Shown in pieces: positions 7,733 through 55,213 of a stretch of 64,000 bases of DNA. The translations under genes were made by a program, and so were the position numbers. Origin of the DNA: Pseudomonadota bacterium (lineage in GTDB: Bacteria > Pseudomonadota > Alphaproteobacteria > Rickettsiales > UBA6187); the NCBI GenBank assembly GCA_027620075.1, contig JAQCEY010000008.1, positions 32,504-96,503 of the forward strand, written 5' to 3'. The notes beneath the pieces were generated by a model. It saw only the letters and a list, made by a program, of their open reading frames with translations. It was not told where the DNA came from and searched no databases. How positions within the stretch are numbered: position 1 is the stretch's first letter; each line of letters opens with the position of its first letter.

Positions 7733-8948
7733 TTTGCCCCTGCTTTAATTCACGTATTATAAAACGAGCCGGATTGACTGCGTCAATGATTTTTTTATCA
7801 ACGGGTAACGGCTCGTTATTTATCATGCATGCTATAATTTCACCTGCAATCGGGCAGCCTGTTATTCCCCTTGAGCCAAACCCCGTTGACACATATAGCC
7901 CCTTATAGTAAGCCCCATCAGGATAATTCTTATTAACTTTACCGTGTTTTAAATCTGCATAATCTTTAAGAAACGACTCTCTGTCGGCAACCGCACCAAT
8001 CATGGGTCTTCTGTCCGGTGAAGTTGAACGCAAGGCAGTTTTTGCCCCAACTATGCGGCAAGACTCGGCATTTATAATTTTATTTAAATTACGAGTGTTT
8101 ATATCATTATCTTCAGAGGTAACATTAAGATTTAAATTCTCTTTATCGTATGTAGCTCCTATATAATTTATACCGTCAATTGTAGGTATGACATACCCAC
8201 CTTCGTAACATAGTACTTTACCGGTTCTTATCTCATCTGAAATTACATGCGTCACCTGCCCTCTTACAGGAGTAAGAGGCAGCCGGTCGGTTTGTGAAAA
8301 TTTGTTAGCATCATTAGAGTTCGCAATAACAACAACATCAGATTCGCAAATTATATTTCCGTCCTGACTGCTTACAGTCCACTTATTATTTCCTTCATAT
8401 AGACTAAGTGCTTCCGAATTAAGTATTATTTCTACATTATCTTTATATGCTTGTATATTTGAGCGACAAAAATCAACAGGACTCAACCAGCCTCCTTGTT
8501 TAATATGCAGAACACCGTCTAAGAGTTTATGACCTATAACTTCGCTTGCTTGAGCGGCTGATAATTTTTCAATCAACTCTTTATTTATTACCAGTTCTTC
8601 AATGTTTTTGTTAACCTTGTCGGAGGATAACTCAAAAACACCGCATAGGTCTGATTTTACGTTAAAATGTTTTTTAAGTTCGTTTAGATGATTAACCGTA
8701 TATAAGAATCCTGCAAGAAAGAATTTTCCTATGATATCATTTTTATGGGAAATAAGTGGACTTATTATAGCTGCCTCATTGCCTGATGCTTCGGCGGCGA
8801 GTCCGTCATTTCTTTCAATAAGTTTTACCCTCCAGCCTCTTTTTGCCATGCTATAGGCAACCGATGTACCTGCCAGACCACCGCCTATTACGGTAGCACA
8901 TAAATTTTTATATTCCACGCACGGGATATTATACCAAGGTTGCTTCAT
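7713..8948 (-). CDS. mnmC: FAD-dependent oxidoreductase, stand-alone MnmC C-terminal (DAO) domain type
   Basis: 411 aa. ATVIGGGLAGTSVAYSMAKRGWRVKLIE...EASGN resembles the oxidoreductase half of MnmC. No methyltransferase half is present. Confidence 0.65.
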   Translation of the reverse strand: MKQPWYNIPCVEYKNLCATVIGGGLAGTSVAYSMAKRGWRVKLIERNDGLAAEASGNEAAIISPLISHKNDIIGKFFLAGFLYTVNHLNELKKHFNVKSDLCGVFELSSDKVNKNIEELVINKELIEKLSAAQASEVIGHKLLDGVLHIKQGGWLSPVDFCRSNIQAYKDNVEIILNSEALSLYEGNNKWTVSSQDGNIICESDVVVIANSNDANKFSQTDRLPLTPVRGQVTHVISDEIRTGKVLCYEGGYVIPTIDGINYIGATYDKENLNLNVTSEDNDINTRNLNKIINAESCRIVGAKTALRSTSPDRRPMIGAVADRESFLKDYADLKHGKVNKNYPDGAYYKGLYVSTGFGSRGITGCPIAGEIIACMINNEPLPVDKKIIDAVNPARFIIRELKQGQITQSHQ

Positions 8949-8966
8949 TTCATGGTCAGAGCTTTA

Positions 8967-12122: not shown

Positions 12123-12237
12123 TAAAAAAGAAACATCGTACAAGTGTCACTATTCCAAAAATATTTAAAAATAGAATTGATTGTTAATTAAATTTTTTGT
12201 AAAACGTTGCGGAGTGTCTAATTGAAATAAAAATAAA

Positions 12238-12331
12238 GTAACTTTGAATTTACGCATATTAAAAAAGTTTCCTAACTTTTTTAAATATGGATTCCACTAT
12301 AATTTTTTACTAAACAAATTCGTGGAATGAC
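12238..12331 (-). repeat. Palindromic multi-hairpin intergenic repeat, subfamily 1 (copy A, inverted relative to copy B)
   Basis: The reverse complement reads gtcattccacgaatttgtttagtaaaaaattatagtggaatcca...aaaaaagttaggaaactttttt...caaagttac. It is near-identical in layout and sequence to 35719..35819. Confidence 0.85.
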
Positions 12332-12373
12332 AAAGGCGAGTAAATTAAATGCAAATAATAATTTAGAATCGTT

Positions 12374-13381
12374 ATGAAAGATTTATTATTACCGATTATA
12401 AAAAAGTCTACTCGAATATCATCGCAGCTATCGGAAAGCTTTATAAAAGCATTTTCCGCCCGTGCCGAAACGCCATATGCATCTAAGGGCAGTAAATCTG
12501 ATAAAAAACAAAATTATCCTGCTTTAAAAGATAATCATTATAGGAACAATAATAATACTCATGGCAACAACGCACTTCTTTATACTGCGGTTGGATTTGC
12601 AGGTGTGGTTATTATTAAAGGCGTTCGAGAAAATGCAAAAAAAAGAAGCACTGAAACTGACAAAAAGAATGATATTATTCCGATATCGGAAAGTAATTCA
12701 GAAGCGTTAAAGAAATATTATTCGGAAAGAATTTTTACAAACGGCATAAGAGATGAAAAAACAAACGAGATAATGTCTGAATTTTTAAAAGTAATTGATT
12801 CTAAAGATGATAAACCGCTTATACATGATATAATGCAAACCATTGCGGCAAAAGGAGCTTTAAACAAAATCAACCTATCTTCAGAGCCTCAACTCATTGA
12901 AACAAAAACAGGCATGAATATGCTAACGGCAAGCCTTGATAAAGATAACAATATCAACGTTTATGATGCTGATAACAGAACTACTAAGGAAGTTATAAGC
13001 AGCATAGTTCATGAAGCCGCTCACTTATTGCAGAACATAACTATAGAAAACAATATTTTCCTCAAAAACCCCTTTAAAAGTAGCACTTTAATCGACACCC
13101 TAAAAAAAGACCGGAAATTAAATAAGGGTTCAAAGGTGATATCCGAACTTATTGAGGATATAATGGAATATGATAGTAATAAATATGGTTTTGAAATACA
13201 TTCAAGGGTTATGGAACAATATTATGCAAACACAGAGGAGGCAAAAAGGCTTTTTCCAAATACTATAAGCGAAATATCTAAAATTCATAAAAATGTAAAA
13301 TCAACACTTTACAACGACCCTGCTTCTTTTGTGCAAAGATTATCTTTTAGTAATCGTCAACCGACTGCCCAAAGTCTTTAA
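12374..13381 (+). CDS. Hypothetical membrane-anchored protein with an HExxH motif
   Basis: 335 aa. One hydrophobic segment (ALLYTAVGFAGVVIIKG). A single IVHEAAHLLQ motif. I recognise no family beyond that. Confidence 0.5.
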   Translation: MKDLLLPIIKKSTRISSQLSESFIKAFSARAETPYASKGSKSDKKQNYPALKDNHYRNNNNTHGNNALLYTAVGFAGVVIIKGVRENAKKRSTETDKKNDIIPISESNSEALKKYYSERIFTNGIRDEKTNEIMSEFLKVIDSKDDKPLIHDIMQTIAAKGALNKINLSSEPQLIETKTGMNMLTASLDKDNNINVYDADNRTTKEVISSIVHEAAHLLQNITIENNIFLKNPFKSSTLIDTLKKDRKLNKGSKVISELIEDIMEYDSNKYGFEIHSRVMEQYYANTEEAKRLFPNTISEISKIHKNVKSTLYNDPASFVQRLSFSNRQPTAQSL

Positions 13382-13539: not shown

Positions 13540-14799
13540 ATGGCACTCAGAAAAAAACAACCTAAAATATACAAGTCGGCTTTAAATGATTTAAAAGCCG
13601 CAAGGTTTCTTGCCGGACACGAATATATCAAAGGTATGCAAAAAGCGGGGAACGATAACTACAGGGCAAGAAGCTCACGATTAAAGACACTATTCATGAT
13701 ATGCACCATGACATTGGTTATAGCCGTTTTATTACTAGCTAAATCCGCTCATTCTGCATCACGTATAAAAGACATAGTTTATTTTGAAGGCATAAGGGAA
13801 AACACCTTGCTCGGCTATGGTCTGGTGGTAGGTCTGAACGGTACGGGTGATAACCTGAAGAACTCACCGTTTACAGAAAAAGGTCTTGCCGAGTTCCTGT
13901 CAAAATTAGGTATCAACTCAAAAGGCACTAACTTAAAGACAAAGAACGTTGCCGCAGTAACTATAACGGCTAACTTTCCTGCATTTGCAAGGGTCGGTAG
14001 TAAATTTGACGTTACCGTAAGTACCTTAGGTGACGCAAAAAGCCTTGAGGGCGGAACATTGCTCGCATCGCCACTGCTAGGTGCTGACGGCAATGTATAT
14101 GGTGTGGCACAAGGTCCTGTAACAATAGGAGGAGTAATAAGCGATTCGGACTCCTCAAACGCAAAATCCAAAGGTGTCGGAACAAATAGTACGATAGCTA
14201 ACGGAGCTACCGTTGAGCGTGAAATAGCTTTTGACCTGTCATCAATGAAGTCTTTAAAACTGGCGTTACGCAACCCTGATATATCTACCGCACGCCGTAT
14301 TTCGGAGAACATAAACGACGCTATCGGTGAAGATGCGGCTAACCCTCTTGACCCCGGTACGGTTAACTTAAATGTTCCTGATATTTATGAAGGAAACGTT
14401 TTGGGTCTTTTGGCAGATATTGAGCAGATAATCGTAGAGCCTGACCAGCGTGCCGTTGTTGTAATTGATGAGGCATCGGGAACAATAGTTATGGGCGAAG
14501 AGGTTAAGATAGATACCGTTGCCGTAGCACAGGGAAATCTGATGGTTGCCGTAAATAGCAATTTCAATGATAAGGGTAATGCATTTTCGTCCGACGTATC
14601 AAGGGCATCGGGCAATACCGAGCCTGTAAATAATAATAATAATCCGGGCAACGGTCTTGCGGTATTACCGCAGGGTGCAAACTTGCGTGACCTAGTAAGC
14701 GGGTTAAACGCACTTGGAGTCGGCACACGTGATTTAATTACAATATTGCAAACTATTAAAGTAGCAGGTGCATTACACGCCGATATAGAGGTAAGGTAA
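13540..14799 (+). CDS. flgI: Flagellar P-ring protein FlgI
   Basis: 419 aa. GYGLVVGLNGTGD and other FlgI blocks throughout. The signal peptide (LVIAVLLLAKSAHSA|S) only begins around residue 53, so alternative starts at 13636 or 13696 are plausible. Confidence 0.9.
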   Translation: MALRKKQPKIYKSALNDLKAARFLAGHEYIKGMQKAGNDNYRARSSRLKTLFMICTMTLVIAVLLLAKSAHSASRIKDIVYFEGIRENTLLGYGLVVGLNGTGDNLKNSPFTEKGLAEFLSKLGINSKGTNLKTKNVAAVTITANFPAFARVGSKFDVTVSTLGDAKSLEGGTLLASPLLGADGNVYGVAQGPVTIGGVISDSDSSNAKSKGVGTNSTIANGATVEREIAFDLSSMKSLKLALRNPDISTARRISENINDAIGEDAANPLDPGTVNLNVPDIYEGNVLGLLADIEQIIVEPDQRAVVVIDEASGTIVMGEEVKIDTVAVAQGNLMVAVNSNFNDKGNAFSSDVSRASGNTEPVNNNNNPGNGLAVLPQGANLRDLVSGLNALGVGTRDLITILQTIKVAGALHADIEVR

Positions 14800-24516: not shown

Positions 24517-25322
24517 AGCAAAATACCTTTAAAAACAGTTGCTACGGCTCCGGTCATATTAACCCTGCCGTTTATGTAACTAATCTGTAAATCTCCACCG
24601 GGCAGATTAACTTCAACGTCCTGCTCGACCAGTCCCCTTAAATTTGCAGCCACAACCGCAGCACAAGCCCCTGTTCCGCAAGCTTTTGTTTCACCGGCTC
24701 CACGTTCCCAAACTTGTAGCTTTATTTGCTTGTTAGATATAATCTGTGCAGCTGAAATATTCGCCCTTTGCGGGAACAACTCGTTAACTTCCAATTTCGC
24801 CCCCGAATTTTGCAAATCAACACTATCAACATTTTCTACAAAAAACACCGCATGCGGATTGCCCATACTGACGGCAACGCCGTCTTTTAATTGCCCAGAA
24901 CTCAAGGGAAGATGCAAAGTATCAACATCTTTCGACAACGGTATATCCTGCCAGGCAGTTTTTGCGATTCCCATATCCACAGAAACCAGCTCAAAACCTC
25001 TTTTTTCGCAGTTTAAAATCCCTCCGGCTGTTTCTATAGAAACGTTTTCTCTATTATTTTCTTTTATTATTATCCACGCAACACATCTTGTAGCATTACC
25101 GCACGCACCCGACTTACTGCCGTCAGCATTATAAAAATTTACCAAACAATCAGCTTTTTCAGAGTCTTCTATTACAACAAACTGGTCACAGCCTACACCC
25201 GTATGACGGTCACATATTTTTTGGACTTCATCACTTGTAAAAGAATAATTTTTCTCACGACCGTCAATAATGACAAAATCATTGCCCAAACCGTGCATTT
25301 TTAAAAAAGGTATATTTTCCAT
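24513..25322 (-). CDS. dapF: Diaminopimelate epimerase
   Basis: 269 aa. KMHGLGNDF, GNATRC, MGNPH and ACGTGA motifs, with both catalytic Cys contexts present. Confidence 0.93.
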   Translation of the reverse strand: MENIPFLKMHGLGNDFVIIDGREKNYSFTSDEVQKICDRHTGVGCDQFVVIEDSEKADCLVNFYNADGSKSGACGNATRCVAWIIIKENNRENVSIETAGGILNCEKRGFELVSVDMGIAKTAWQDIPLSKDVDTLHLPLSSGQLKDGVAVSMGNPHAVFFVENVDSVDLQNSGAKLEVNELFPQRANISAAQIISNKQIKLQVWERGAGETKACGTGACAAVVAANLRGLVEQDVEVNLPGGDLQISYINGRVNMTGAVATVFKGILL

Positions 25323-25395
25323 AATCCTGACTTTAATACCTTATTTTCAGCACTAAATAAAGCATTTTTATTACAGATTGCACTAAAAGAAAAAC

Positions 25396-25558
25396 GTCAT
25401 CCCCCGAATTTTCGTAGAAAATTATAGGGGGATCTCATTTAAAATTATAGAGATCAACGAAAAAGTCGGGGATAACAATCCTAACTCTTGAAGTAAAAAT
25501 ACTATAATCATCTAATAAGATCGCCCTATAGTTTTCTAAAGAAAACTCTGGCGATGAC
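25396..25558 (+). repeat. Composite palindromic multi-hairpin repeat, subfamily 2 (copy C) plus an inverted third-variant module
   Basis: gtcatcccccgaattttcgtagaaaattatagggggatctcatttaaaattatagagatcaacgaaaaagtcggggataac plus a shared tail matches the reverse complement of 55045..55157. 25519..25558 holds an inverted related module (gtcatcgccagagttttctttagaaaactatagggcgatc on the other strand). Confidence 0.85.
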
Positions 25559-25596
25559 GTAAATAGGACAAATATATATTTATTGAAAACTCCCGA

Positions 25597-26316
25597 TTAC
25601 AGAATATTGATGTGGCTTTGATTATACACTTCAATTGCAGGGCCATAGTAATATTCAACCCAACCTTTAACTATTACGTCCTTATTTACTAAATCTTCTA
25701 TCTTATAGTCAACGAAATTATCTAAATTTTCCTTAGCTATTTTTACGGTAAAATCTGTTTTCCAGTCATCTGTGAAATTTATATACATATTATTTTTAAC
25801 AAGTTTGGTACTTTTTACCCTACCCTTTACTACCTTAAACTTGTTTACGTGATTTTTAGTATTTGTTTCTATTTCCGCCTGATTAAGAAATATTTTTTTA
25901 TCCTTTGCCCATAAGCCTAACTGTAAATTCCTAGCGTTATTTTCTGCCTCAACAATTTCTTTATCAACAGCTATACCGTCAACATTATAATTTAAAACGT
26001 AACCGCCTTTCAAAAGCCTGTTATAGACGCTACCACCACCAACTTTAATATCATCAACTATCGAATTGTTATACAAGTCTTTTACCGCACCAACCACCAC
26101 CAACTCAACAATATCACTTCCTATTATACCATTGATATAGTTTGAATATTCCTGATGCATTTGTAACGGAACGTACATATTTTTTATTTTAACATTAGTG
26201 CCGTCATCAAGTTGCAACAATCCGCTTTTACTTACCCCTATTAAATTATATCCGGCATATGAAATATTATTAATAAATATGTATATAAACAGCACGTTAA
26301 ATAATGTAATTTTCAT
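25597..26316 (-). CDS. Secreted thermonuclease (SNase)-family protein with degenerate catalytic positions
   Basis: 239 aa. Signal-like N-terminus. SNase-like core ending in ARNLQLGLWA. C-terminal YINFTDDWKTDFTVKI...VKGWVEYYYGPAIEV extension, as I recall for alphaproteobacterial thermonuclease-family proteins. The DGDT and GIDAPE equivalents are not conserved (LDDGTN, NMYVPLQ). Confidence 0.5.
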   Translation of the reverse strand: MKITLFNVLFIYIFINNISYAGYNLIGVSKSGLLQLDDGTNVKIKNMYVPLQMHQEYSNYINGIIGSDIVELVVVGAVKDLYNNSIVDDIKVGGGSVYNRLLKGGYVLNYNVDGIAVDKEIVEAENNARNLQLGLWAKDKKIFLNQAEIETNTKNHVNKFKVVKGRVKSTKLVKNNMYINFTDDWKTDFTVKIAKENLDNFVDYKIEDLVNKDVIVKGWVEYYYGPAIEVYNQSHINIL

Positions 26317-26387: not shown

Positions 26388-27113
26388 ATGAAAAAAGAAC
26401 AGAGTGGATTTTCGTTAGTTGAGTTATCTGTGTCAATTGTCATTATAGGCTTTATAATCGCAGCCATAGTGCAAGGCAAAAACATACTCGACAATGCTCA
26501 AATTCGTTCTATTATCAGTCAATTTTCCGAACATCAAACATCAGCGAATAGCTTTAAGTTAAAGTACCTACAATATCCGGGCGACTTTAACGAAGCCGTT
26601 GAACACTGGGATATAGGGACTAATGATATTGAAGACGGCAATGGCGACGGAAAAATTCAATTCATTCAAGGTGGGGTATATGAAGGCTATAGGGCTTGGC
26701 AACACCTTACATACGCCAGAATGACAAAGGCTAATTATTTAGGAACGGAAACGACCGGAGCCGCTCAACTTGAATCTGACATTCCCAAATCCAATCAAAT
26801 AGGCGGATTCGTATTTGAATACGGACTATTATCAATGACAAGCGGCAATGTAATTGCACTTGGAATACCGCTTGCGTCTACTACAACAATTAATTTAGGC
26901 AGCTCACTAACCGCTCAACAAGCATTTGCGATTGATAACAAATCAGACGGAGGAAACCCTTCAACAGGAAAGGTAAGGGCTATTGAGGGCAGCGGCTCTA
27001 CTGCGGGAACATGCGTAGATGCTAACGGTGCGGGAACAGCTAACGATCTGTATAATATAAGTTCTGGGGGCAAGAATTGTATTATAGGTATATCTTTTGG
27101 CGACACGCCTTAA
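26388..27113 (+). CDS. Type IV pilin/pseudopilin-like protein (prepilin N-terminal methylation motif)
   Basis: 241 aa. MKKEQSG|FSLVELSVSIVIIGFIIAAIV is a class III signal peptide with Phe+1 and Glu+5. Confidence 0.8.
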   Translation: MKKEQSGFSLVELSVSIVIIGFIIAAIVQGKNILDNAQIRSIISQFSEHQTSANSFKLKYLQYPGDFNEAVEHWDIGTNDIEDGNGDGKIQFIQGGVYEGYRAWQHLTYARMTKANYLGTETTGAAQLESDIPKSNQIGGFVFEYGLLSMTSGNVIALGIPLASTTTINLGSSLTAQQAFAIDNKSDGGNPSTGKVRAIEGSGSTAGTCVDANGAGTANDLYNISSGGKNCIIGISFGDTP

Positions 27114-27116
27114 GCA

Positions 27117-29942
27117 CTAATTCGCAAAAGATATCTTCACACTATTTTCATCTTGCTTCTTCTCGGCTACTCCCGCCGCCTGAACGTGAACCATGTCACT
27201 AGTCAATCCTGCTTCAAGCATAGCCGACCTAACCGCTATAGCCCTTTTTAAGGATATTCTCCTTGCGTTTTCTATCTTGTTACTTGATGCGTAACTAACT
27301 ATAGCTACTTTTTTATTAGAATCTTTTATATCCTCAACAAGCTTATTGATTTTTTTATTATCACTTTCGGTCAAGTCAAGCTGATCTTCATTAAAATCAA
27401 TTTTTAACAAACCTTCAGATTTTGGCGTAGCTGCAATGTTAGTTGTGTTTAACAATTCCATTTCGCTTGACGGAACAACTATTCTGTTGCCCACCAGTTC
27501 CGTAACTTTTGAAGGGATAGTACTATTTCCATTAACACTACCTACCGATGAAGAGCCTAAAACAGAACGGTTTATAACAACGTCATTAGGGTGTTTGTTC
27601 TTTTTTAATGTTTTAGCTATATCCTCAAGGTATAATATACCGTCACTATCCGTTACTGTTTGTTCAGGAGCTTTTTGTTCGGTATCTTCCTGTTTGAGTT
27701 CTTCACTTGATGATAACTCATCAGACTCTACGGGATTAGAAGACGGGCTACGCTTTAAGTCAACTTCCGCTTCTGCTTCAACTTTTTCTTCTTCCTTATC
27801 TTTCTTTAAAAGACTTTTAAACTTAGAAAGGTCTACTTCTTCCTTCTTTTCAGCCTCTTGGGCAGGCAAGGCTTTTAATCTGGCTTTTTCAAGAGCTTCT
27901 TCCCATTTTTCATCACTTATAGGGTCGTAATTCTTTTCATTTTCAATATTAGCCTGAGGAGATACTATAGGTGTCTTTTTCTCTGTGGAAACAACATCAG
28001 GAACTTTATTTACATTTTGTTGTTTATTCTCGGAGACTTTTTGTGTTTTTTCTTCAGTAATATTTTTAACTGCGGGAGCGGCTACATCTTCTTGTTTTTT
28101 CTTGTTTTTTTCAACTATCGGAACATTATCTGCCTCTTGAGTTTTTGAACTCCTTACAACAGGAATTACCGTTTTTTGTATCTTTTTAACATCAAAGGCT
28201 TCTTCTTTTAAAGGCTTAACTCTCGGCTTAGGAGTTTCTTTGCCGCCTTGTTCATTTTCAACGGGATTAGGCAGAATTATGTTCGTATTATTTCCTAATG
28301 CTGCAATATTCTCGTTTTTCTTTTTTATATCTGCGTCCAGAGTTTTCATAATATCTTCCGGCACGTTCCAATCACTTAAGTTACTAACGCCGTCCAAATC
28401 AACAGGCTTTGTGTAGTCTTCCGTATAATCCTGCACTATTTTATAAAGTTCGCTAACTTCAACAGGTATCAATGCTTTATTTTCTTCCTCAGGACTTTTA
28501 TATTCATTTATTTTTTGCGGAACATCAATTTCCTGAGTTTCATTTACTTCATTTTTTATGACATCAGGCTTTTGCTGCGGAGTAACTTTATCATTACTAT
28601 TACTGACTTTTATATTAAGCTTGTTTTGCTCTTGTTTTGCCTGCCCGCCCTCATTAAAAGAGAATAAGTCTTTTACTTTTTTATTAACAACACTGATAAA
28701 GCTATCTTCCTTTACAGGATCACTTTTCGTACTTATATCCTCGGATTTTTTAGGCTGTTTCGGCAAGTCATTTTTTGCGTTAGGTACATTTTTTATATCA
28801 TCGACTAATTCGGACTCGTTTTCGTACAGCTTAACTTCCTTCACATCGAGAAGTTCTTTTTCATAATCGTCATACTGTGAAAATTCGTCACTTTCAATAG
28901 CGTCTATATCATCATTAAAAACGGTATTCTTGTTCGGCAGCTTTTTAGGTATGTCGGACAATTCTGCCGGCTCCTGTAAATATTGACTCTTTTCATTAAT
29001 TACAGGTTTAGGCAATATTCTGTTTGTATATTCCTCTTCCTTTTTTTCGGATTCAGGGAAATTGTAGTAACTTACATTAGGAGAGGCAGTTTTATTATCG
29101 GCATTATTTTCACGCGGCACTTCCGTAACCTTAATAAAACTTTGTCTGCTTCCCGGCATTTGGTCAAAATATATCTCTTTAGCCGGAGACTTTTCTTTGC
29201 TTAGTTCAACCACTTCGTTATCGTCCTTATAAGACTCGTTTCTTTGGTTTTGTTCACTTCCGGGCTTTAACCTCGGAAGCAAAAGATTATCAAGAACATT
29301 CTCGGTTGATTCGGCTACAGTCAATGGCGATGAGGTAACTTTCTCAGTGCTATACGGCTTTGATATCGGAGATGGCAGGGAATCTTGTGAGTTGTATTTA
29401 TCGGCTATTTCATTTCCGATATTAAGATCTTGCCACACTTGATTAGGATTTTTCCAAACCTGCTGATTAGGTTGCCTTGTCGGAAGCTGTTCTATATAAC
29501 CCTGATATTGTTGAGGTTGTCTTTCAACATACGGGTCATTTTGACGGACGTTAGGATTATAGCTTTCAGGATATCTTTTCTGCGGTTGATTATTAACATA
29601 ATCATTTTGCTTATAATTACCGGAATTATTATAATTATTAGCATTATTACTCGCAACGGCTCTTCCTTGCGATTCTTGCATCGCCTTATATTGAGCCTCT
29701 TTTATTCTGCGCTCTTCTTCTTTTAGTCTTGCTATTTCCCTGTTCCGCAGTTCTTGTATTACGGCAAAGTTAACCACGACCGAAGGTAGCTCAACACCGG
29801 TTCTAAAACTTCTGGAATACGCTGAATCTGCATTATAAACACCCGTGAATAAGAAAGTGCTTAACAACAAATTTAATTTAAAACCGTATTTTATTTGCAT
29901 TTTTGTACCCTGAATAACCGTTTTGGCAAAGTAGTATAACAA
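27117..29942 (-). CDS. Large secreted low-complexity protein with a C-terminal OmpA/MotB-like domain
   Basis: 941-aa ORF. The likely start is the ATG at 29900 (MQIKYGFKLNLLLSTFLFTGVYNADSA signal peptide). Coiled-coil segment, Q/N/P/Y-rich segment, long E/K-rich region, and a C-terminus VAIVSYAS...ENARRISLKRAIAVRSAMLEAGL resembling OmpA_C with GHTD replaced. Confidence 0.7.
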   Translation of the reverse strand: MLYYFAKTVIQGTKMQIKYGFKLNLLLSTFLFTGVYNADSAYSRSFRTGVELPSVVVNFAVIQELRNREIARLKEEERRIKEAQYKAMQESQGRAVASNNANNYNNSGNYKQNDYVNNQPQKRYPESYNPNVRQNDPYVERQPQQYQGYIEQLPTRQPNQQVWKNPNQVWQDLNIGNEIADKYNSQDSLPSPISKPYSTEKVTSSPLTVAESTENVLDNLLLPRLKPGSEQNQRNESYKDDNEVVELSKEKSPAKEIYFDQMPGSRQSFIKVTEVPRENNADNKTASPNVSYYNFPESEKKEEEYTNRILPKPVINEKSQYLQEPAELSDIPKKLPNKNTVFNDDIDAIESDEFSQYDDYEKELLDVKEVKLYENESELVDDIKNVPNAKNDLPKQPKKSEDISTKSDPVKEDSFISVVNKKVKDLFSFNEGGQAKQEQNKLNIKVSNSNDKVTPQQKPDVIKNEVNETQEIDVPQKINEYKSPEEENKALIPVEVSELYKIVQDYTEDYTKPVDLDGVSNLSDWNVPEDIMKTLDADIKKKNENIAALGNNTNIILPNPVENEQGGKETPKPRVKPLKEEAFDVKKIQKTVIPVVRSSKTQEADNVPIVEKNKKKQEDVAAPAVKNITEEKTQKVSENKQQNVNKVPDVVSTEKKTPIVSPQANIENEKNYDPISDEKWEEALEKARLKALPAQEAEKKEEVDLSKFKSLLKKDKEEEKVEAEAEVDLKRSPSSNPVESDELSSSEELKQEDTEQKAPEQTVTDSDGILYLEDIAKTLKKNKHPNDVVINRSVLGSSSVGSVNGNSTIPSKVTELVGNRIVVPSSEMELLNTTNIAATPKSEGLLKIDFNEDQLDLTESDNKKINKLVEDIKDSNKKVAIVSYASSNKIENARRISLKRAIAVRSAMLEAGLTSDMVHVQAAGVAEKKQDENSVKISFAN

Positions 29943-30028: not shown

Positions 30029-30826
30029 TTAACAAAGTTTTTTCATGAGCAACGGCTCAATGTCAGCGTTTGATGCAATGATACTATTGTTTTCAAACAT
30101 TTTCTTTTTACCGTTAATATCACAAACAACGCCCTTTGCCTCACTGATAAGCAGAACGCCTGCCGCTATATCCCACGGCTTTGCACCGTTATGAATGAAA
30201 CAGTCGAATTTTCCTGCAGCGGTATATGCGATAGCCAAAGCAGTTGAGCCTATACAGCGTGTTGCCATAAATTCTTGTGTAATATCGCTATTTTCCTTGA
30301 TGTCCGTACTAAATGACCCCACCGAAAGCAATGACTCGGATAATTTAGTTCTGGAGCTTACTCTTAATCTTGTCGAGCCGTTTGTATCAGCTGTTTCAAG
30401 CCACGCCCCAAGCCCCTTAGCCGCCCAAAAAGTTTCTTTTAATATAGGGGCTTCGGTTACACCTGCAATAATTTCCCTTTGACCGTTGGGTAATTTTTTT
30501 TCAAGACCGATAGTAATGCAAAAATACGGAAAGCCATGCATAAAATTGTTTGTTCCGTCTATCGGGTCGATAATCCAGCAATATTCCTCATCAGAGCCTT
30601 TAATAAAGCCGACCTCTTCGGATAGTATAGAATACCCTTCTCTTGCTTTTTGCAGCTCTGCGATAAGTATAGACTCTGCCTTTAAGTCGGCAGAAGTGAC
30701 AAAATCTCTTGCACCTTTTTTTGAAACCTGCAAATTCTCCACTTCGTAAAAGTCCCGCACCACACGTCTTGATGCCTTACGAATGGCGTCCATCATTATC
30801 TTTACTACCGCAGGGTATGTTTCCAT
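30029..30826 (-). CDS. suhB: Inositol monophosphatase family protein
   Basis: 265 aa. ILSEE and WIIDPIDGTNNF motifs. Confidence 0.88.
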   Translation of the reverse strand: METYPAVVKIMMDAIRKASRRVVRDFYEVENLQVSKKGARDFVTSADLKAESILIAELQKAREGYSILSEEVGFIKGSDEEYCWIIDPIDGTNNFMHGFPYFCITIGLEKKLPNGQREIIAGVTEAPILKETFWAAKGLGAWLETADTNGSTRLRVSSRTKLSESLLSVGSFSTDIKENSDITQEFMATRCIGSTALAIAYTAAGKFDCFIHNGAKPWDIAAGVLLISEAKGVVCDINGKKKMFENNSIIASNADIEPLLMKKLC

Positions 30827-35480: not shown

Positions 35481-35718
35481 TTAACTTATATTAACTTCTA
35501 TTTTCTTAAGCTGACCTCAGCCTAAAAAACATACAGCCTAATCAAGCCAACCGCAAGGAAAATGAAAGATTTTATAATACAAATACAATCTTTTTTCAGT
35601 TAAAAAACTTAAACTAATATAAAACTAAATATACAGCGAAACATCATTGCCTTTTAGTAACAAATATAATATAAGAATATCTTAATTATAGTAATTTTGT
35701 ATTTAATTTACCTATATT

Positions 35719-35819
35719 GTCATTCCACGAATTTTGTTAGTAGAACAAAATTATAGTGGAATCCACACTCTAAAAAGTTAGGAAACTTTTTAGAGTACGC
35801 AGATTAAATCCAAAGTTAC
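35719..35819 (+). repeat. Palindromic multi-hairpin intergenic repeat, subfamily 1 (copy B)
   Basis: gtcattccacgaattttgttagtagaacaaaattatagtggaatcca, then the perfect 12-bp-stem hairpin ctctaaaaagtt-agga-aactttttagag, then ...caaagttac. Matches the reverse complement of 12238..12331. Confidence 0.85.
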
Positions 35820-35843
35820 TATGTTTTTAACTTCGGGAGCAAA

Positions 35844-40256: not shown

Positions 40257-40380
40257 TACTCTACCCTTTGCTATAAATATTAATTTTTTGAACTAAACTC
40301 TACAATATGAATCCTACAATTGCAAACCCCTTCTAAGGTTTTAATTGTGGGAGTGTTCAATCAATATAGGTTTTTAAATT

Positions 40381-40415
40381 AAAAAAACGCCCCTGATTTT
40401 TCAGAGGCGTTTTTA
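40381..40415 (-). terminator. Rho-independent terminator downstream of the transporter gene
   Basis: The minus strand reads aaaaacgcctctgaaaaatcaggggcgttttttt: a 10-bp stem with one mismatch followed by a T-run. Lies 27 nt after the stop at 40442. Confidence 0.7.
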
Positions 40416-44913: not shown

Positions 44914-44940
44914 ATTAGTAACCTTTTGTTGATTGAATTT

Positions 44941-45008
44941 GTCATGGGCGAACTTGTTTCGGCATCTACCTTATCATGGTATAGATGCCGAAACAAGTTC
45001 GGCATGAC
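44941..45008. repeat. Long near-perfect hairpin repeat (GTCATG...CATGAC), related to the subfamily-2 third module
   Basis: gtcatgggcgaacttgtttcggcatcta-ccttatcatggta-tagatgccgaaacaagttcggcatgac. Arms of about 27 nt with one small indel. Shares cgaacttgtt(t)cgg with 55086..55097. Confidence 0.85.
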
Positions 45009-45185
45009 AAAAATTAGAGATTTCAGTGCGATTGTTACAAATTCTATGCTTATTAAACCCTCCCTTAATTTATTATATGCTATTAGAAATTTTTAATTGA
45101 GAATCTTATTTAGTTCGTGTAGGGTCTATTAGCTTAAGTTGTCAAAACTTGCGTTTTTGCCATAACATGTTATAATATAACGATT

Positions 45186-54906: not shown

Positions 54907-55044
54907 AGAATTACGGTTAAAATCTTTTAATTAAAAGTGTCTGTAAAATAGTTAATCTGATTGTTTTTGCAACACAAAAATAAAGAGTGTTCGATGAACA
55001 ATAAGTATTCCTAACCGCTAAATTAGTAGTTATAATACCACCTT

Positions 55045-55157
55045 TATAGTATTTTTACTTTTCAATAGTTAGAATTGTCATCCCCGACTTGTTCGGGGAT
55101 CTCTATAAATTTAAATGAGATCCCCCTATAATTTTCTACGAAAATTCGGTGGATGAC
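55045..55157 (-). repeat. Palindromic multi-hairpin intergenic repeat, subfamily 2 (copy D, inverted relative to copy C)
   Basis: 55077..55157 reads gtcatccccgacttgttcggggatctctataaatttaaatgagatccccctataattttctacgaaaattcggtggatgac, with gtcatcc/ggatgac termini. The flanking tail 55045..55076 is also shared with copy C. Confidence 0.85.
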
Positions 55158-55213
55158 AAACTATGGTACGGAAGTTATTTTTAATCACTATAGGTTAACC
55201 CTAGTCTAATACC

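Follow-up and report, generated by a model that had tools for sequence, protein, structure and literature searches.

The intergenic block near 25.4 kb of the window (by which we mean the whole 64,000-nt stretch of DNA analysed here) carries several hairpins that recur elsewhere in the same DNA. The question it raises is what these hairpins are: an undescribed structured repeat, as an earlier note on this DNA suggested they might be, or members of a class that is already known. The window comes from an uncultured, flagellated, Rickettsiales-like alphaproteobacterium of approximately 38% G+C, and the block is flanked by dapF and an ORF of 239 aa, both on the minus strand. From comparison with two published systems, we regard the block as probably a cluster of CGTC-tagged REP hairpins (Ssn-related motifs, SRMs), which a nuclease would bind as ssDNA. 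The suggestion of novelty was too broad: the class was described in 2013 (PMC3733652) and its protein partner in 2025 (PMC11893778), and the long two-tier module alone lies outside the published definitions, the rest of the hairpin class having already been described.

Hairpin modules in the block and across the window

Each module opens with an unpaired (C/T)GTC tag, continues into a stem that starts with an A-T and a T-A pair, followed by covarying pairs and a loop, and closes with an unpaired C, usually as CCA. Two forms are present. In the long (M1) module, a 7-bp outer stem leads through an asymmetric internal loop of constant sequence (5' G, 3' ATA) to an inner stem of 6-10 bp, such that a second stem-loop replaces the loop. 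The short (M2) module is a stem of 8 bp closed by a 5-nt loop, CTTGT. Scores for long modules are given below in bits of R1, a covariance model that we built from an alignment (A1) of long modules of other genomes.

The first long module of the block (25394..25437, plus strand) reads aCGTC-AT-CCCCC-G-AATTTTC gta GAAAATT-ATA-GGGGG-AT-Ctca and scores 55.5 bits (E 1.7e-11); folded as DNA, it yields -8.6 kcal/mol (z -3.0). Direct reading of the sequence places the spacer of the module pair at 25438..25451, with complementary module tails, ATCTC and GAGAT. The other member of the pair, at 25452..25476 on the minus strand, is a degenerate short module (GTTAT-CCCCGA-CTTTT-TCGTTG-ATC), which was recognised from its sequence and by comparison with an orthologue and a paralogue: the orthologue, in a close relative that we refer to as the 90% relative, retains the CTTGT loop, and the intact paralogue lies at 55075-55104. 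A conserved 31-nt arm (25477..25507) comes next and, as a comparison of five copies revealed, moves with the M2 and M1 pair as a unit of 114 nt. The last module of the block is a long one in inverted orientation (25516..25560, minus strand), aCGTC-AT-CGCCA-G-AGTTTTC ttta GAAAACT-ATA-GGGCG-AT-Ctta, with 49.0 bits (E 7e-10) and a DNA fold of z -5.2. The earlier note had called an inverted variant at 25519..25558 with a fully paired outer stem; the inverted module is indeed there, but its outer stem, CGCCA/GGGCG, contains one mismatch. The orthologue of 25516-25560 in the close relative has a perfect CGCCC/GGGCG. Beyond this module, repeat comparison identified the terminal inverted repeat (TIR) of a MITE, copied over 21 nt (GGGAGTTTTCAATAAATATAT, 25574..25594, minus strand), which forms the edge of a whole insertion of approximately 215 nt.

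A second copy of the 114-nt unit occupies 55044..55159, as found by BLAST and by R1, and is composed of the arm (55044-55074), a short module (55075-55104, plus strand), a spacer and a long module (55116-55159, minus strand; 45.1 bits). The recurrence of the multi-hairpin element in inverted orientation near 55 kb, as claimed previously, is therefore well supported: 25396-25492 is 92% complementary over 97 nt to the inverted 55061-55157, and BLAST matches 25396-25507 with 55044-55157 over 114 nt at 91%. Across the window genome and the 90% relative there are five copies of the unit, with identities of 85-92%. Module copies had also been noticed at 12.3 kb and 35.7 kb, and R1 recovers both. The one at 35.7 kb belongs to a TIR-bounded unit that we term type A (35689..35821, plus strand), in which TIRs at 35689-35707 and 35803-35821 enclose a long module (35717-35766, plus strand; 53.7 bits) followed by an A/T-rich hairpin. 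The one at 12.3 kb lies in a more decayed type A unit (12228..12355, minus strand; long module 12287-12333, minus strand; 50.7 bits), which is 80% identical to the first over 135 nt. Finally, an inverted pair of short modules lies at 44940..45010, with tags outward (44940-44969 on the plus strand and 44981-45010 on the minus strand). The pair reads tGTCAT-GGGCGAA-CTTGT-TTCGGC-ATC, a 17-nt spacer, and GAT-GCCGAA-ACAAG-TTCGGC-ATGACa, and its right-hand module has a DNA fold of z -5.6. The short modules, namely 55075-55104, the 44940-45010 pair and 25452-25476, had been only partly parsed before.

In total, R1 identifies five long modules in the window and no more (E 2e-11 to 7e-9), and there are approximately four short modules of the form GTCAT-6 bp-CTTGT-6 bp-ATC. 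All of the window copies are intergenic. The window contains 8 hairpins of the form GTCAT-stem-ATC, whereas shuffled sequences contain 2.8 on average, which excludes chance as their source. When folded as single-stranded DNA, the modules are predicted to adopt the fold as drawn, with z values of -1.9 to -5.6. An integron attC origin was considered and ruled out, as GTTRRRY core sites and a cassette array are both absent.

Module definition and covariation beyond the window

To define the long module we searched a set of genomes, one for each species, with a pattern in which GTCAT, GARTTTT, AAAAYTATA and ATC were fixed and both 5-nt halves of the outer stem were free; at least 120 stretches matched. 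The matches listed all come from MAGs, most of which are labelled Rickettsiales or Alphaproteobacteria. Because the outer stems were left free in the search pattern, they provide an unbiased test of pairing. Among the matches listed, 96.4% of cells at the free outer-stem positions are paired, compared with 82% after shuffling of partners. The pairs seen are T-A, C-G or A-T at position 1 and C-G, G-C or A-T at position 2. The listed loci hold 67 further modules that lie outside the search pattern; the inner stems of these differ markedly in sequence and are always complementary (AATCGC/GCGATT, AGTTTGC/GCAAACT, AATGCGC/GCGCATT and others).

Alignment A1 gathers 141 distinct long modules, taken from MAGs of uncultured Rickettsiales and of other Alphaproteobacteria, and the model R1 built from these modules of other genomes recovers the five in the window. 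Of the paired-column cells in A1, 96.9% are complementary; shuffling lowers this figure to 79.7%, and offsetting the partners by 1-3 columns lowers it to 31-55%. Double-sided changes occur in 350 cells, compared with 97.5 in shuffles. It is clear that the stems covary, as the earlier note had proposed from a handful of copies. The positions that do not vary in A1 are the GTC tag, the A-T/T-A base of the stem (AU in 141/141 and UA in 141/141), the unpaired G13, the ATA, the C after the stem (ATC), and the first and third pairs of the inner stem (A14/T16). The base before GTC is mostly C or T, and the consensus of the tail is ATCCAg. Covarying stems together with fixed unpaired bases point to constraint on the folded strand. 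We note that templated repair within a hairpin is an alternative source of compensatory changes in inverted repeats, one for which no selection is needed.

The loci listed are also informative about arrangement. Adjacent modules in these MAG loci have their tags outward in 74 of 78 pairs, with spacers mostly of 10-30 nt. Among the listed pairs of long modules, the outer stems differ in 46/59 and the inner hairpins in 59/59; because pair members are non-identical, each module would fold alone, in place of one long perfect palindrome. In the MAG loci of the matches listed, 80% of long modules are intergenic, although only approximately 14.5% of bases are, and the apparent in-ORF modules are mostly at ORF edges. 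In locus L014, the reading frame of a class-V aminotransferase gene runs uninterrupted through one inserted module pair. This in-frame insertion recalls the behaviour of Rickettsia palindromic elements (RPEs).

A described hairpin class and its nuclease

The CGTC-tagged REP superfamily was defined in 2013 by Di Nocera, De Gregorio and Rocco (BMC Genomics 14:522; PMC3733652) on the basis of a CGTC tag (TGTC or CCTC allowed), AT at stem positions 1-2 and a CCA tail. Its members form inverted dimers, often of non-identical units, and are found mainly in Alphaproteobacteria; families CGTC-1 to -4 have stems of 8-9 bp and loops of 4-5 nt (PMC3733652). CGTC-1 unites the Neisseria dRS3 and Rickettsia RPE-6 elements, and CGTC-4 corresponds to RPE-4 (PMC3733652). 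The likeness to Rickettsia palindromic elements that had been remarked upon was thus well chosen, with RPE-4 and RPE-6 in the same CGTC-tagged superfamily (PMC3733652). The long module shares with CGTC-REPs the tag, the AT stem start, the CCA tail, the formation of non-identical inverted dimers and a mostly intergenic position, and the modules here are likewise mainly alphaproteobacterial and occasionally inserted in frame in a gene, as at L014. The short modules fit the stem and loop limits of the CGTC families, whereas the long module does not. In the window, the five long modules carry the tags aCGTC (2/5) and tTGTC (3/5), and their tails are CCA in 2/5 and CTC or CTT in the rest.

The second published system is that of the SRMs and the Ssn nucleases described by Chenal et al. 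(2025, Nat Commun 16:2388; PMC11893778). SsnA is a 94-aa single-domain GIY-YIG nuclease, and SRMs lie on either side of ssn genes; nucleases of the system are assigned to CDD subfamily cd10448 and resemble N. meningitidis SsnA with E < 1e-10 (PMC11893778). In N. meningitidis the SsnA system limits recombination of incoming ssDNA (PMC11893778). SsnA binds its motif, the Neisseria transformation sequence (NTS; consensus CGTCATTCCCGCGMAVGCGGGAATCYRG), only as ssDNA, and binds neither dsDNA, RNA nor the opposite strand; it cleaves a few bases upstream of the motif (PMC11893778). The GTC before the palindrome is needed chiefly for cutting and the C after it chiefly for binding (PMC11893778), and these key bases are the ones that are invariant in the long module. 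Changes to the NTS that preserve the hairpin abolished SsnA activity (PMC11893778). This sensitivity of the NTS weighs against a simple reading of free covariation as tolerated variation.

We applied the published SRM search string, HGTCWYN(0-2)YYVSBRHN(0-5)WNVSBRGN(0-2)RNCYNB, to the modules of the window. The short module at 55076-55104 matches, against a chance expectation of 0.1 matches. The long modules all fail to match (0/5), because the string limits the gap between the stem halves to 5 nt; if a gap of 6-40 nt is allowed, 2/5 do match. A literature string search with long-module signature sequences returned only unrelated primer matches. The Ssn paper describes hairpins of 20-50 nt and many uncharacterised pairs (PMC11893778), and forms like the long module may therefore have been seen already. 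Like the SRMs and the NTS, the modules have a GTC tag, an AT-initiated stem, an unpaired C after the stem and a mostly intergenic location, and they flank on both sides, tags outward, a gene of approximately 95 aa that encodes a single-domain GIY-YIG protein. The long module is unlike them in having a second stem-loop in place of a 4-5 nt loop, and in its fixed G/ATA internal loop.

The association with GIY-YIG genes was evident from both directions. Among the matches listed, the loci that the long-module pattern retrieved span 0.97 Mb and contain 11 GIY-YIG ORFs, and long modules lie within approximately 120 nt of at least 7 of the 11, on both sides in five. The small ORFs between modules encode 95-104 aa and match Pfam GIY-YIG with E values of approximately 1e-13. 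The long module flanks a GIY-YIG gene in loci L020, L025, L065, L074 and L107, and in relatives of the window organism (L131, L137 and L140). The proteins accompanied by long modules share 48-57% identity with GIY-YIG proteins whose genes have other types of SRM beside them, among these an NTS-like one (L056). For a test that was free of DNA-motif bias, 80 metagenome loci were fetched by protein similarity alone. A GTC-tagged hairpin lies within 250 nt of the gene in 76/80 of these protein-first loci, and hairpins are present on both sides in 54 of the 65 with enough flank; the typical order is motif (plus), gene, motif (minus). The motif types include NTS-like, CTTGA-loop, the long module and other nested long forms.

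The 90% relative (CG11 MAG PCXK01 and JGI contig Ga0210050_1000001) has such a gene between purQ and purL, on a 946-kb contig that also carries its dapF. The gene encodes a 96-aa GIY-YIG protein, P0180, in which the spacing of Tyr8, Tyr19 and Glu66 equals that of Y6, Y17 and E64 of SsnA, the residues mutated in SsnA. It is followed by three long modules, of which the one directly downstream is nearly identical to the window's 25516-25560 and another to 25394-25437. In a 72% relative the order is module pair, GIY-YIG gene, module pair, purL, and in another relative it is purQ, a module-like remnant, GIY-YIG gene, module pair, purL. This residence of the nuclease gene at a conserved chromosomal site adjoining purL sets the clade apart from the Ssn system as described. 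Searches with the nuclease gave no meaningful match in NCBIfam and no sequence relative in PDB.

These neighbourhoods bear upon whether the modules might be classical REPs or REPINs moved by a RAYT tyrosine transposase. The REP/BIME/REPIN-RAYT systems appear similar in their short hairpins with an unpaired 5' tetranucleotide tag, their inverted doublets, the enzyme gene flanked by repeats and recognition as ssDNA. As an explanation for the modules we consider this origin extremely improbable, since their tag is CGTC or TGTC where that of the REPs is GTAG, and since the gene between the repeats encodes a GIY-YIG nuclease and not an HUH (Y1) tyrosine transposase. The 2013 study likewise reported no transposase or other enzyme associated with the CGTC repeats, and no tyrosine transposase gene flanked by them (PMC3733652).

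The same evidence can be brought to bear on a role as RNA. The earlier note left it open whether a folded DNA or a folded RNA was under selection; constraint on the folded strand is borne out, and by homology to the NTS and SsnA the relevant form would be ssDNA and not RNA. Terminators, mRNA-stabilising hairpins or small RNAs would suit stable intergenic hairpins such as these, and many REPs have been argued to be transcribed (Di Nocera 2013; PMC3733652). It is nevertheless quite improbable that the modules are RNA elements of this sort. A scan of 25300-25650 found no promoter, terminator or terminator-like T tract, and the block has no Rfam match at curated thresholds; at permissive thresholds, 25300-25650 matches only sub-threshold plant microRNA-precursor models, which are generic long-hairpin noise. 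Relative to the genes beside them the modules point either way, and most of them form symmetric pairs; SsnA does not bind RNA (PMC11893778). An RNA-element reading is also compatible with a role at the DNA level.

Transposon packaging and the state of the window copies

To examine how the modules are carried, we compared syntenic 20-kb regions of the window genome, the 90% relative and a 66% relative. The 25.4 kb block is common to the window genome and the 90% relative, with few substitutions, and is absent from the 66% relative, in which the intergenic spacer is 54 nt. Within the same 20 kb, the 90% relative has four extra TIR-bounded insertions at sites that are empty in the window genome, with TIRs of 28 nt (96% complementarity), 28 nt (71%), 27 nt (85%) and 25 nt (80%). 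Two of these four have a direct repeat of 7-8 bp on either side: an intact element at 12447-12597 of locus L125, which has the 28-nt TIRs of 96% complementarity and the direct repeat AATAATT(A/G), and an element at 8747-8953 of L125 with the direct repeat AATTAAGT. Neither the 55.0 kb nor the 25.4 kb unit shows a confident direct repeat; at 25.4 kb the only candidate is an imperfect one of 8 bp (CTGTAATC / GTGCAATC). The units that carry the 35.7 kb and 12.3 kb modules are of a second type, with terminal repeats of their own; the intergenic sequence at 35.7 kb has diverged too far from the 66% relative for the alignment to define an empty site. TIRs, direct repeats and presence or absence between relatives suggest, as a conclusion that is partly shown, that the hairpins multiply in this lineage as cargo of miniature transposons.

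Are these units then simply ordinary miniature transposons of the Correia type, moved by a DDE transposase, with hairpins that are mere internal structure and have no protein of their own? The units resemble Correia elements and other bacterial MITEs in being non-coding and of 130-230 nt, with TIRs of 25-28 nt, short flanking direct repeats (on two units) and insertion polymorphism, and the copying of the 114-nt unit as a block would also be expected of a MITE. In this packaging, the comparison with Correia-type MITEs made by the earlier note is apt; no evidence of sequence relatedness to Correia elements was found. We judge such an account of the hairpins themselves to be improbable, for the generic attributes of MITEs (non-coding sequence, TIRs, duplication, presence or absence) belong to the vehicles and not to the hairpins. 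Most other MAGs have bare module pairs, with no outer inverted repeats noticed on reading the flanks, so that in those genomes the modules appear to be vehicle-free, and the modules flank GIY-YIG genes, their putative protein partners. Their invariant unpaired bases are, moreover, those that SsnA needs. The first terminal repeat occurs not only at the edge of the block (25574-25594) but also alone, at 40349..40369 (plus strand; GGGAGTGTTCAATCAATATAG), where repeat comparison found no adjoining hairpin module; this solo copy indicates that vehicle and cargo are separable.

For SRMs carried in this manner, we can outline how the system would operate. The tagged strand would fold when the DNA becomes single-stranded, during replication, repair or DNA uptake. 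By homology, an Ssn nuclease of approximately 95 aa, with a single GIY-YIG domain, would bind the fold and nick the strand within a few bases of the tag, on its 5' side; it would read the fixed bases as sequence, and the covarying positions would need only to pair. The hairpins would multiply as cargo of small TIR-bounded units flanked by direct repeats. These units are likely to be moved in trans by a transposase; its gene would be bounded by GGTAGTGTTCAATAAATATAG or TAGTAAYTTTGNATTTAAT, and its action would make duplications of 7-8 bp.

Whether the window copies still have a partner is a separate matter. The lineage could have lost its Ssn nuclease, leaving the modules as neutral remnants of miniature transposons. 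In support of this, an Ssn gene was not found in the window by tblastn or in 82 kb of the window contig (approximately 9 kb added on each side), and a protein collection that includes the proteins of the window MAG holds no homologue of P0180 above 80% identity, the best ones, at 77-79%, belonging to other relatives. Several window copies are damaged, with the stems CCACC/GGGGG and CGCCA/GGGCG and the tag GTTAT, and the gene-bearing 90% relative has approximately three times as many modules as the window genome in the shared 20 kb and preserves the shared copy better. Against it, MAGs are incomplete and the sequence searched did not reach the purQ-purL region of the window MAG; the outer stems are perfect in 3/5 and the GTC tag is kept in 5/5 of the long modules; and the 25.4 kb block has been retained, with few changes, since the split from the 90% relative. 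We regard loss of the nuclease in the lineage as rather unlikely. Since no Ssn gene was found and the copies are few and partly decayed, the window modules may be relics, or the MAG may be incomplete.

Returning to the identification of the block as a cluster of SRMs, what is new relative to the literature is incremental, and consists of the two-tier module, a nuclease subfamily fixed by purL and the transposon packaging. We tentatively put forward the fuller proposal that an uncultured, flagellated, Rickettsiales-like clade has an undescribed, two-tier class of SRM and its own nuclease subfamily fixed by purL. Covariation would here distinguish the positions that are read as sequence (GTC, AT, CCC/GGG, G, A.T, ATA and C) from those that need only pair, and the motif would spread as cargo of TIR-bounded units that make duplications of 7-8 bp.

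If this proposal is true, it would supply the first concrete route by which these motifs multiply, a matter left open by both source papers, and the insertion polymorphisms between close relatives are a testable lead on that spread. For annotation, we point out that repeats of this kind yield spurious small ORFs and break MAG assemblies, and that labelling them as SRMs avoids the calling of false new RNAs. Among site-specific nucleases, those of the Ssn family are the only ones known to cut ssDNA exclusively, and each pair of nuclease and motif is a potential tool. P0180 with a module of the 25516-25560 type is a new candidate enzyme-substrate pair, and the covariation map of the nested hairpin separates the bases to keep from the bases that need only pairing.

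Ssn-like genes and module insertions in related lineages

Across the 20 kb that we compared with the 90% relative, four TIR-bounded insertions were particular to that relative (locus L125, at 7838-7996, 8747-8953, 12447-12597 and 14200-14406) and had no counterpart in the window genome; no such insertions particular to the window genome were found in the same 20-kb stretch. The relative, which carries an Ssn gene, has approximately three times as many modules there as the window genome.

Ssn-like genes of the GIY-YIG family were located in the 90% relative (L131, 6001-6291), the 72% relative (L137, 4001-4291) and a further related lineage (L140, 820-1122). purL lies directly downstream of the gene in all three lineages examined, and in two of the three the gene is housed in the interval between purQ and purL. 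Because this purL-adjacent site is constant, we suggest that the gene has been inherited vertically and domesticated in these relatives, rather than moving freely.

Other tagged hairpins and a solo terminal repeat

At other GIY-YIG genes (L058, L187, L208, L211, L220 and L150; in L058 at 1033-1103 and 1440-1510, gene-orientation), the flanking GTC-tagged hairpins are longer still, measuring 45-70 nt. Their loops contain a further nested hairpin, and loop expansion therefore seems to have occurred repeatedly within the GTC-tagged motif superfamily. Mixed arrays were also observed in another low-G+C Rickettsiales MAG (L027, which is CAYULD010000001.1, together with L053, L067 and L078), in which long modules (GTC-tagged two-tier hairpins) are followed by an A/T-rich hairpin resembling the one that type A units of the window carry, and then by modules of a different tagged type (GTCATCTTGAGCGAAGCGAAAGATC). 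It is this last type, distinct from the long module, that flanks a GIY-YIG gene in that MAG.

At 40349-40413 in the window, between two minus-strand genes, a solo MITE terminal repeat precedes an A-run, a GC-hairpin and a T-run (AAAAACGCCCCTGATTTTTCAGAGGCGTTTTT), which together look like a two-way intrinsic terminator.

Motifs within genes and neighboring pilin genes

In L014 (1863-1972), a long-module pair of approximately 38 codons lies in frame within a class-V aminotransferase (NifS/IscS-like) gene and breaks the Pfam domain into two separate stretches, much like RPE insertions in Rickettsia proteins. In the window, TGTCACTTCTGCCGACTTAAAGGCAGAGTCTAT (30669-30701, minus strand) fits the published search string for the Ssn-related motif (SRM); it falls within an inositol-monophosphatase-like ORF (30029-30826) and may be a chance match or an old intragenic motif.

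The window also encodes a 941-aa ORF (27117-29942) with an OmpA domain at its C terminus and an extended stretch of low complexity in which Asn, Gln, Glu and Lys are abundant; among relatives the ORF varies from 884 to 941 aa. Type IV pilin-like (N_methyl) genes adjoin the flagged module cluster (26388-27113), and one pilin gene near the ssn gene of the 90% relative (L131, 11444-12291) gives a weak ComP_DUS match. These pilin-like genes and the ComP_DUS match hint at DNA uptake, and in Neisseria it is in this process that Ssn acts.
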